Shown: positions 57,302 to 61,013 of the stretch, one piece after another | How positions within the stretch are numbered: the stretch's first letter is position 1 | Layout of the letters: every line of letters starts with the position of its first letter | Assembly (NCBI GenBank): GCA_965112155.1 | Contig: OZ218105.1 | Length of the DNA stretch: 64,000 nt | Source of the DNA: Podarcis liolepis | Lineage: Eukaryota | Strand: one strand, 5' to 3' | Notes under the pieces: model-generated | The model's database searches: none | Told to the model about the DNA's origin: nothing | What the model saw: only the letters and a program-made list of their open reading frames with translations | Translations under genes and position numbers: made by a program

Positions 57302-58831
57302 TAGATTACAGAATAGCCAGTACGTACTTTTACCTGCTTACGAAGAGAAGCAGCAACAGACAAGGCCATATTCAGATTTCAAATGTATGGATTCTATCTG
57401 TGCCATTCACACACAACAGAAACCAAGGCTGTCTTCAGCTCCTGTTCCTCTACAACTATTCTCGGCCTACATAGACCAGCAAAACATTTCCTTAAAAGCT
57501 GGCTTATACAACTGTTACGCATTCAAGCTGAAAACAGCTCAGCCAGGGTCTCATTTGGCCACCTGTCCAGGATGGCAAATGGTAGGAATGGTGATTGAAC
57601 ATCAGGGAGCTCACAATACAGACAAAAAGGGGCTGTCGGGCTACATTTGGCTTCTGCGGTATCAGGCCTGCCTGATATTCAAAGAAAGCAAAGCGTATTT
57701 AAAAACTGAAATGGAAAAGCTGAAAAAATGCATCTGTCTGGAGACAGCTCAGCTCACTCAGGTGGGTCCAGGCTTTGCAGCTTTCCCACATTTTGTACGG
57801 AACAAGGAAAGAGAGCTTCACCCAAAACGAAACACAGGGCATCCAATTTAACCCTGAAACCACAGCGCCTTAACAGAAAGATCAATTATGGCACAGCCCA
57901 GAGCTCCTCCTCTCATCCGAAAGGTCATTCAAAGCATGACTCACCTTCCTATGTGCACATTTTCAAGCAGTAAAGGAAATCTATATGGCAGTTAAACATG
58001 CAACACTAATATAAATATTGTTGACAAGACAGGAACTTTCGGGTGCTGTTATTGACCAAGTCCAGGCACCAAGACAAAAGCCTGCCTTCAGTCTATATTG
58101 AGAAGCCAATCTTAAACCATGCTAACTGTAGAGAAATCTCAACTTCATTGGACTCGCTCCCACAACTATGTAAAGAAACACAATCCCATACATATATCAT
58201 GGAGTCCACTGGTTGAACAGACTCTGGAACTGAGCCTTAGACGCCCACCCCATTACAAATAGGTAGAGAACCATACATTGTGTACTCAGCAGATTAAGAG
58301 ATGTGATATTTCATTAATATACCGTACATGCAAATTTGCCATGGAAAAATGATGACAATTCTGGTTAAGAGGAGATAACCCCCTCTTTCCATCTGAAAAG
58401 ACTCAGCGTTTTTATTTTTGCTACAGCAGGTACTTGAAAAGTAGCCACTTGATCCTATCACAGGTAGCTGAACAAAACAGCTAAGAAGCACAATGATGCC
58501 TCTGTGAACAGAAGAGGGGGAGAAAATGCTTCTACACAATGGTATTCTGATTCCAAGCATGTTTACGTGGAAGCAAAAACCCAGCAATTTTAAAGGACCT
58601 CACCTCCAACATATATATTGTTCTAAGACTGTAGCATAAAGGAAGACCCAGAGGACAACCTTTCCATGTTAGCCTGGTGTACCTGAAAAGCACTTAAGCA
58701 GCAAACAGGTTTCAAGGTGAGCTGAGCTACAGTTTCCAACAGGTCCTCCCCAAACACCCCTTTTGAAACTCTTACCTCCCCCTCCCCCCAAGGCCCTTAC
58801 CCAGCTATAAAACAGACTGGGGGAAATGACT

Positions 58832-58871
58832 CTAGATTCAGGTAGGTAGCCTTGTTGGTCTGACGCAGTAG

Positions 58872-58919
<48 letters not shown>

Positions 58920-58991
58920 AGTAGCACCTTAGAGACCAACTAAGTTTGTTCTTGGCATGAGCTTTCATATGCATGCACACTTCTTCAGATA
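58832..58991 (-). mobile_element. Penelope-like retroelement terminal fragment with internal (TA)n
   Basis: GGTAGCC.TGTTGGTCTG...TCCAGTAGCACCTTAGAGACCAACTAAG...CACACTTCTTCAGATA signature; flanked by the 17-bp direct repeat GACTGGGGGAAATGACT (58815-58831, 58996-59012). Confidence 0.7.
58956..58991 (-). ncRNA. Minimal type-I hammerhead ribozyme-like motif (probably degenerate)
   Basis: Minus strand reads UAU-CUGAAGA-A-GUGUG-CAUG-CAUAU-GAA-AGCU-C-AUG: core boxes, stem II, palindromic AGCU stem III and a UC cleavage site. Confidence 0.6.
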
Positions 58992-59386
58992 AAATGACTG
59001 GGGGAAATGACTGAATGGTGTCAGAATCCCAAAACTTCTGACCTCCACTGGAAAGTTCCCAAAGCATGACAATGCCAAGGCCGGGAAACATTTGCCACCT
59101 TTGCAAGAGGTGATCACACCCCTCTCCCCAAACCTCCCACACACACAGGCCTTTAGCTCATGCATCAATATTGTTTGCTCACTCCATCAATTAACCTGCA
59201 GATCGGGAACAGATTTTCACATTTTCTCCATTTCTGCAGCAGACCCTCATTTCTGAGGAAGCGCACCAAGGGTGTAGTTACTGTATTAGGTTGGGTAGCA
59301 TCCACGCTGTCCTGTGCAGATGAAAACAAGCATGCGCGCCTTTCACACACACACACCCCTTCATACATAATTCCTTCCTCACCCAC

Positions 59387-61013
59387 CTGCATAGAAGCGG
59401 ATGAGGCAGCCGGTCTCCGAGTCCATGCCCTCCTCCTGCACCCGCCACAGGTCCCGGAAGCCCAGCTGCGAGAGGTAGTCGTTTTGGACCTGCAAGGGCT
59501 GCTCGTGAGGCTCCAGCCGGCGGGCGGTCTCCCCATGCAGTTGCACGTACAAGGCCGGAGGCTGCGGCGGGGAGGAGGCGGCGGCGGCATCCCCGGCGGA
59601 AGAGGGATCCCCTCCCGGCGCCTTCCCCGCGCCGGGGGACTCCCCCGCGGCTCTGCCCCCCCGGGGGTTCTCCGCGTGCGCCGACGGCAGGCCGCCCAGG
59701 CGGGCCCGGCGGCTCCTGCCAGGCCCCGATCCGGCCCCTTCCCCCTCCGCCGTTGCCGGCCCAGGAGGAGGAGGGTCCGCCTCTAACTCCTCCGACGAAG
59801 ACGAGGAGCCGCCGCCGCCGCTGTAGGCGTCCAGCCGGTCCGAGGTGCTCTCCGCGCTGGGGCTGAAGCTCTCCGTGTCCGAGCCCCCCAGGAGGGACGG
59901 GCAGGAGAGCGGGGGGCCCGATAGGTAGAGCTGCGCAGGTGGCGGGGGAGGAAAGGCCCGCCCGGGGCTGCAGTCGGAGGGCGACAGGCAGGGGCGGCCA
60001 CCTGCGCGGCCGTTCTCCCCGCCGCCGAGAGCCAAGCGCCCCGGTCGGGGAGCCGCCTCGCCGCCGCCCCCCAAACCGCTGGGGGTCCCCCGACGGTTTC
60101 GCGGCCTCCTCCCGGCCGGTATCGGGGTCAGGCTGCCAGCTGGGCAAGTCGAAGCCTCCGCGGGGCCGGGCAGCGCCTCTTCTGCTCCCCCGGGCTCGGC
60201 GGATGGGTCTGCCGCAAAATCGCCGTCCATTTCTCCTTCATCCTCCTCCTCCTCTTCCTCCTCTTCTTCCCCTTCTTCTTCATGGGGGCCGCGCGCCTCT
60301 ATGGTGGTTGCTGCCGCCGCCGCCGCCGCCTTCCCCAAGACCCGGACGGCGCTGCTGCCCGCTCCACGGTGCCCGAGCTGTAACAACCGCGACGCCACCT
60401 CGGCCGCCGTCGTCTCCAAGGTGCAAAGCACCGGCCGCAGGTAGCAGCCGCCGCCGCCCCCTCGCTGCTGGTGATGGTGGTGGTAGTAGTAGACATGGAC
60501 GCATCCCCGCTGGAGGTCCCGTCGCACCCAGTCCCGCTCCGGCGGCTGCAGAGGCTGGAGCTGCCGGGGCGGCTTGGGCAGCAGGAGCAGCGCCTTCCGA
60601 TCCAGGCTGCGGGTGCCCAGCGAGGCGGCAGCGGCGGCCGAAGAGGAAGACGACGAGGAGGAGGCGGCGGCCGAGAGGTTCCTTTTCAGCCTGCCCCTCC
60701 GCAGCAGAAGCGAGTTGGCGCCGCCGCTGCTGGGAACGGCCGCCGCTGCCGGAGTCCCGTTGGCCGCCAGCGTGAGGGAAGCCGCGCCGCCGCCGCCGGC
60801 TCCAGCCGCGGCCCCTCGCCTCCTTCGCCGCTGCGGGCCGCCCCCGGCTACACCCTCTGCTGCTGCGACAGCAACGGCTGCTGCTGCCTCGCCGCTTCTC
60901 AGCGGGCCCTCGGTGCCGGCCTGGCCCGCGTAGCCGAGCCGCTCCCGCTTGCCGGCCGTCGGGGCCGCCGCCGCTGCCCTGCTCCCGCGCTGAGGTTGCT
61001 GCGCAGGTTCCAT
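59387..61013 (-). CDS. PHLPP1: PH domain leucine-rich repeat protein phosphatase 1 (PHLPP1/SCOP), coding part of exon 1 (542 codons + 1 nt, phase-1 donor)
   Basis: ORF 59379..61043 contains recognisable PHLPP1 N-terminal blocks: RRRRR, LLRRGRLKRNLSAAA, GTRSLDRK, DWVRRDLQRGCVHV, YLRPVLCTLETTAAEVASRLLQLGH, SDTESFSPSAESTSDRLD.YS, LYVQLHGETARRLEPHEQPLQVQNDYLSQLGFRDLWRVQEEGMDSETGCLIRFYAG. The track start (61043) is TTG; the first ATG is at 61013 in a strong context (ACAATGG). Donor CAG|GTGGGT at 59387/59386. Confidence 0.95.

Follow-up and report, generated by a model that had tools for sequence, protein, structure and literature searches.

Does a hammerhead ribozyme lying just inside the first intron of a lizard gene cut the pre-mRNA of that gene? 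This question is raised by a 64,000-nt stretch of Podarcis liolepis DNA (assembly GCA_965112155.1, contig OZ218105.1; hereafter, the window), in which a first-pass annotation had placed a hammerhead-like motif in sense orientation about 400 nt into intron 1 of PHLPP1. Placement and orientation were correct: C3 of the motif is base 399 of the intron and C17 is base 428, and every part of the motif that had been described was confirmed at its place on the minus strand (Table 1). Exon 1 of the host gene matches the Pfam PHLPP RA domain (E 2e-14), and exon 2 and the leucine-rich-repeat exons follow downstream in the same orientation, beyond an intron 1 of about 79 kb. A PDB search with exon 2 gave no match. 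From the exon 1/2 junction, we take the gene to be PHLPP1 rather than PHLPP2. Hammerhead position numbering is used throughout, with C17 as the scissile nucleotide.

The window copy carries the core boxes CUGANGA and GAAA together with U16.1 and H17, and all of its invariant core bases are intact. Its 15.1-16.1 segment is palindromic and helix III is absent. The motif was found once in the window and not at all in 100 shuffled sequences. The stems are altered. The G10.1-C11.1 pair is lost, T at 58967 giving G·U instead, and helix I has 3 bp, compared with 4 bp in the intact family copies L031 and L038; three substitutions retain wobble pairs. Minimal hammerhead ribozymes (min-HHRs) of PLEs typically have 4-5 bp in helix I, but 3-bp examples occur among them (Fig. 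S3, supplement of PMC4209133). A 161-nt region folded no better than shuffled sequences (z 0.46). The Rfam scan gave 28 matches at E up to 10, mostly to AT repeat; none was to a hammerhead family, which is expected because helix III is absent.

Table 1. Features of the hammerhead motif, the insert and the host gene, and the other copies in the gene region (positions are those of the window unless a contig is given).
Feature	Position	Strand	Remarks
Helix I 5′ strand, 3 nt	58991-58989	minus	family's fourth base G replaced by T at 58992
CUGAAGA core box (C3-A9)	58988-58982	minus	C3 = 58988
Unpaired A between A9 and 10.1	58981	minus	typical of PLE minimal hammerheads (PMC4209133)
Helix II, 5 bp	58980-58976 / 58971-58967	minus	4-nt loop CAUG
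Helix II C-to-U changes	58967, 58969	minus	give two G·U pairs; change at 58967 is in 10.1-11.1
G12-A13-A14	58966-58964	minus	G12 = 58966
Palindromic AGCU	58963-58960	minus	helix III possible only with a second molecule
C17, predicted scissile nucleotide	58959	minus	triplet CUC
Helix I 3′ strand	58958-58956	minus	A-to-G change at 58956; helix I ends in U·G
164-bp insert, short non-coding copy of Neptune-type PLE pLTR end	58832..58995	minus	
17-bp target-site duplication, upstream copy	58996..59012		exact
17-bp target-site duplication, downstream copy	58815..58831		exact
(AT)21 microsatellite	58874..58915		grown within the family's A/T-rich linker
3′ extension, likely PLE "tail"	58832..58866	minus	found in only some copies; tail concept, PMC11167929 and PMC8557442
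PHLPP exon 1 coding region	59387..61013	minus	host gene
Copy L075	G000:C8:67712031	minus	about 9 kb upstream of start codon; subfamily with U at position 17
Copy L065	G000:C8:67594674	minus	sense, later intron, about 370 nt before LRR exon, 106 kb downstream of window copy
Longer family copy (L062:701-1145)	G000:C8:67622701-67623145	plus	antisense, intron 1; ribozyme arm 913 nt before exon 2

The motif lies at the end of an insert between 17-bp direct repeats. The repeats are exact, and the Penelope-like fragment between them measures 164 bp rather than 160 bp. Homology to the family begins at 58991, and 58995-58992 is junction sequence. The two junctions (58810-58831 and 58991-59012) are alike past the 17-bp repeat (20/22). 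This likeness suggests microhomology between the target and the cDNA end at the 5′ junction. The insert is without coding sequence and is 97% identical to one dispersed copy. On the plus strand at 58840-58848, the antisense of the element tail has the sequence of a strong splice donor, which could matter for antisense intronic copies. A contig from another organism contains the unique flank and 26 letters of the insert, under the 31-letter bar for bridging, and the flank was covered in one of four runs; this is a weak hint that the insertion may be shared with that organism.

To which family does the insert belong? It is part of a young repeat of very high copy number. Exact intact cores number 12,946 genome-wide and exact matches to a downstream 30-mer number 17,983, versus 0 for the reversed control in each case; inverted arms are counted separately in both figures, so that there are fewer loci than matches. 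Thus, the search for intact family members that the first-pass annotation had proposed shows that the family carries the core. The G10.1-C11.1 pair is intact in the 12,946 copies and shows the C-to-U change in 855. Longer copies link the motif to the end of a GIY-YIG ORF (Pfam 26.4 bits; cut-off 22.6), and in L048, among others, C3 follows the stop codon of this ORF by about 185 nt; the ribozyme is thus in the terminal repeat 3′ of the ORF of a Penelope-like element (PLE). A CX4CxxC linker ahead of the endonuclease was found at one locus (L059), and a CX2-5CxxC linker is described as diagnostic of Neptune/Nematis (PMC8557442). L019, which belongs to the subfamily of the window copy, contains homologous GIY-YIG pieces that are 70% identical. 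The Neptune assignment rests on the endonuclease and the linker, the fetched copies ending short of the RT. These features and the min-HHR consensus agree with the earlier identification of a Penelope-like minimal type I hammerhead, and, as judged from sequence, the window motif belongs to a Neptune-type Penelope-like retroelement as its minimal hammerhead. A second GIY-YIG ORF (L028:2247-3080, minus strand) adjoins a family copy and probably belongs to another Penelope-like clade; it was dropped as a basis for the family assignment, being 34% identical to the family's own ORF. Intact copies of the family have a helix II that is perfectly palindromic over 14 nt (for example, L038:1509-1522), and many inversion breakpoints fall in or near helix II. 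A diverged and rarer family in the same genome (L121 at G000:C4:53332035 and three others) shares the core but differs in helix II and has a longer loop, and is nearer to the turtle motif described below. It makes up 4/67 matches and shows the helix II swap that is also seen relative to the turtle motif, three of the four having G-C in place of U-A at the fourth pair.

The closest published entry is the min-HHR of the turtle Chrysemys picta bellii (Cervera and De la Pena 2014, PMC4209133). It shares with our family the core boxes, the unpaired base after A9, G10.1-C11.1, the palindromic AGCU in place of helix III and a 4-bp helix I. PLE min-HHRs likewise occur in the pLTR and as thousands of dispersed single copies (PMC4209133). 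Compared with the turtle motif in Fig. S3 of that paper, our family differs by compensatory pairs in helices I and II and by a helix II that is palindromic over 14 nt with a 4-nt loop, and the window copy further differs by its G·U at 10.1-11.1 and its 3-bp helix I. With the EN+ PLEs of the Neptune clade (Craig et al. 2021, PMC8557442), the family shares the C-terminal GIY-YIG domain and the linker, and the inverted 5′-truncated arms and optional 3′ tail of that clade are common among our copies. Poseidon_Ac (PAc) of Anolis carolinensis (Frangieh et al. 2024, PMC11167929) is likewise a PLE of a lizard; it has a hammerhead in its pLTR, its 3′ ends are set by the tail, and its template also appears to be uncut RNA. 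However, it belongs to a different clade, and a feature of the family described here is that copies stop abruptly 3-8 nt ahead of C3, about 30 nt past a TATA-like box. Non-LTR retrozymes (Li, Clavereau and Pollet, bioRxiv 10.64898/2026.07.22.740005) are, like the insert, non-coding, PLE-derived and hammerhead-bearing, but they form tandem arrays with at least two ribozymes, and the window holds a single copy. Among the titles and abstracts searched, in which subscription journals were thinly covered, none described this family or its 5′-end pattern. The window motif is one more decayed copy of an already described ribozyme class.

To assess its condition, the window copy was compared with the majority sequence of 82 distinct fetched copies; the set is skewed toward the window copy and toward C11.1U. 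The window copy differs from this majority at 58992, 58969, 58967 and 58956, which are all stem positions, and at one subfamily site. The predicted pairing of stem II in a 52-nt context was 0.01 for the window copy, versus 0.81 for intact L031 and L038; with 100-nt flanks, the values were 0.04 versus 0.2-0.3. The predicted energy of the active dimer was +1.7 kcal/mol for the window copy and -12.7 kcal/mol for the intact sequence, these folding energies leaving out core contacts and protein. The earlier judgement that this copy is probably weak or dead is therefore supported, and the models indicate that it is likely inert. The G-U wobbles of stem II and the 3-bp stem I, to which the weakness had been ascribed, were both confirmed. 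However, the copy's own stem II wobbles are not what limits cleavage in trans, because the core of the partner would cut the bond of the window copy and binding would be limiting. A descriptor scan of 214 kb found four copies. L065 is the only other sense copy in the gene; it retains G10.1-C11.1, its stem II folds at 0.79, and by these predictions it is a better ribozyme candidate than the window copy.

Whether the family cuts was tested on its genomic record. From the listing of the 17,983 downstream matches we took the first 100, which fall without exception in the first 4.4 Mb of C1, and fetched 82 loci. After duplicates and arms at locus edges were dropped and a few arms were added by a looser anchor, 95 arms were scored. 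Among these listed matches, 40/95 arms had 5′ ends 1-10 nt before C3 (14 of them at -6) and 25 had ends farther upstream, while 22 ended within the core, 18 of these having an inverted partner. Only one of the 95 listed arms ended at the cut window (+28 to +31), and seven ended past it, two apparently being scoring artefacts. For listed arms without a flagged inverted partner, 0/35 ended at the cut. In an overlapping set selected by the core, 36/60 ends lay within 10 nt and 2/60 at 11-40 nt. At the loci L031-L060, L076-L105 and L126-L207, the ends bunch 3-8 nt upstream of C3, about 30 nt past the TATA-like box. This box begins at -37, an initiator-like A is at -7, and the 5′ end of the window copy is at -3.

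From this pattern, it seems somewhat better than an even chance that the short copies, including the window copy, are cDNAs of an uncut leader RNA that runs from the start site to the tail; the TATA and start-site step is based only on spacing and the clustering of ends. We hold the leader-RNA reading no more firmly because cut RNAs might integrate poorly, which would be an alternative cause of the scarcity of cut ends, and because the D. virilis Penelope promoter is TATA-less (PMC2377424). Could the 5′ ends reflect splicing at an acceptor-like sequence that precedes helix I? This cause was set aside, since no upstream exon is common to the short copies. Inspection by eye gave no convincing sign of an additional, cap-derived G at the family 5′ ends.

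The substitutions in the family give conflicting signals of selection. Among exact genome matches, the core-killing change G12A is present in 1,056 copies and C11.1U in 855. Both G12 and G8 are catalytic (PMC6155905). Selection against active ribozymes, which the 1,056:855 ratio might indicate, was left as unproven: two control CpGs lean the same way (sense G-to-A versus C-to-T, 122:62 and 339:319), and G8A points in the opposite direction. G8A was found in 20 copies, compared with 43 for the same change at a same-context non-core site (p 0.005; 0.018 with inverted pairs merged). This shortage hints that an intact core is under selection somewhere, source elements being the simplest place. Because the signals conflict, the sequences are most simply read as having decayed in a roughly neutral way once inserted, with selection perhaps acting on the source elements.

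Is the position near exon 1 special? Three exact patterns summed (14,857 arms) give one sense copy per 212 kb. At this density, a fixed 500-nt interval is expected to hold a sense copy in about 47 per 20,000 genes (an assumed gene number), and an intron of 79 kb to hold 0.37. Thus, dozens of genes should by chance have a copy this close to exon 1, and the location is not special.

The structure of the insert, its family membership, the abundance of the family and the four stem substitutions are directly observed. Taken together, the window copy is very probably the 164-bp end of a Neptune-type PLE with a minimal hammerhead, flanked by a 17-bp duplication, which likely landed by chance in PHLPP intron 1 and is likely inert. 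In the mechanism that we propose, the enzyme of the element would have nicked the intron and begun to copy a short leader RNA, priming at its tail site. This RNA, starting about 6-7 nt before C3, would have been copied uncut to its 5′ end; point mutations of the ordinary kind, CpG decay among them, would later have weakened both stems. Since helix III cannot form in a minimal hammerhead on its own, the pre-mRNA would go uncut and splicing would remove the intron. In published experiments, a single minimal motif gave no cleavage and dimers gave low cleavage (PMC4209133). The ribozyme of the Anolis PLE needed protein in order to cut and was dispensable for insertion, and RNA-seq ends were absent at the site (PMC11167929). 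The claim that the motif cuts nascent PHLPP1 pre-mRNA is not sustained: there is no nearby same-strand partner, and family 5′ ends at the cut are as rare as described above. Splicing is reported to have persisted in introns cut by hammerheads and to have been blocked by a fast HDV ribozyme (PMC2995048); by analogy, a slow minimal motif belongs with the hammerhead-cut introns that still splice. Xenopus retrozymes are depleted in introns yet common there, with 42-44% of copies (bioRxiv 10.64898/2026.07.22.740005).

Cleavage could instead be supplied from elsewhere, as the first-pass annotation had suggested in proposing activation by other Penelope transcripts. The intact RNA of an expressed element, together with its protein, would cleave PHLPP pre-mRNA 428 nt into intron 1, and expressed Neptune RNA and protein acting on sense intronic stubs would nick thousands of host pre-mRNAs, PHLPP included; we consider both the local and the general proposal very unlikely. 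The substrate half of the window copy (AGCU, C17 and AUGC) can pair over 4+4 bp with an intact partner, thousands of intact source copies are present in the genome, and protein-assisted cleavage has been published for the Anolis PLE, whose protein is able to switch on an otherwise silent hammerhead (PMC11167929). However, the computed binding over these 8 bp is about -2.8 kcal/mol, with a Kd near 10 mM. Moreover, the intact family is predicted to prefer a 14-bp stem II duplex (-35.4 kcal/mol) over the active dimer, the window copy is without an ORF, a single arm in 95 begins at the cut among the matches listed, and every RNA bearing the same 9-mer would be equally targetable. If it were true, trans cleavage of host introns would be a new route by which a transposon affects host expression.

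We give an equally small chance to a role as an inverted repeat, in which the window copy pairs with the antisense copy 913 nt before exon 2 and thereby bridges the 79-kb intron or subjects it to editing. This antisense arm (G000:C8:67623072-67623145) is 89% identical over 74 nt, and the predicted duplex (-113.9 kcal/mol) far exceeds the monomer folds (-10.3 and -13.2), but the arms are separated by 78 kb, the placement was noticed post hoc, a few such placements are expected genome-wide, and the pairing would also lock the ribozyme off. Slightly less likely still is domestication, in which the copy would be a conserved intronic ribozyme that cleaves itself slowly, comparable to the RECK hammerhead of amniotes. 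The sense orientation close to exon 1 and, as a weak hint, the contig from another organism that reaches 26 letters into the insert (bar 31) would fit it. The intronic hammerheads RECK, CTCL and DTNB share with the window copy the type I core and the sense intronic position. However, they resemble full type I motifs and are conserved across classes (reptiles, birds or mammals; PMC6155905), whereas the window copy is a young decaying repeat without helix III or an Rfam match and is weaker than its own family, its target duplication is intact, and it is 97% identical to a dispersed copy. A coincidental hammerhead shape inside a repeat is hardly credible; the lack of an Rfam match and the unremarkable fold (z 0.46) are set against the presence of all min-HHR consensus features and against compensatory pairs, both relative to the turtle motif and in the diverged family (4/67 matches, three with G-C).

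The insertion of a chance-landed PLE end thus remains our reading of the locus, and the window copy by itself matters little. The useful by-product is the record of 5′ ends in its family. Ends that lie just ahead of the ribozyme and almost never at the cut are a genomic hint that the integrated RNA is uncut, and this pattern bears on the function of Penelope hammerheads.
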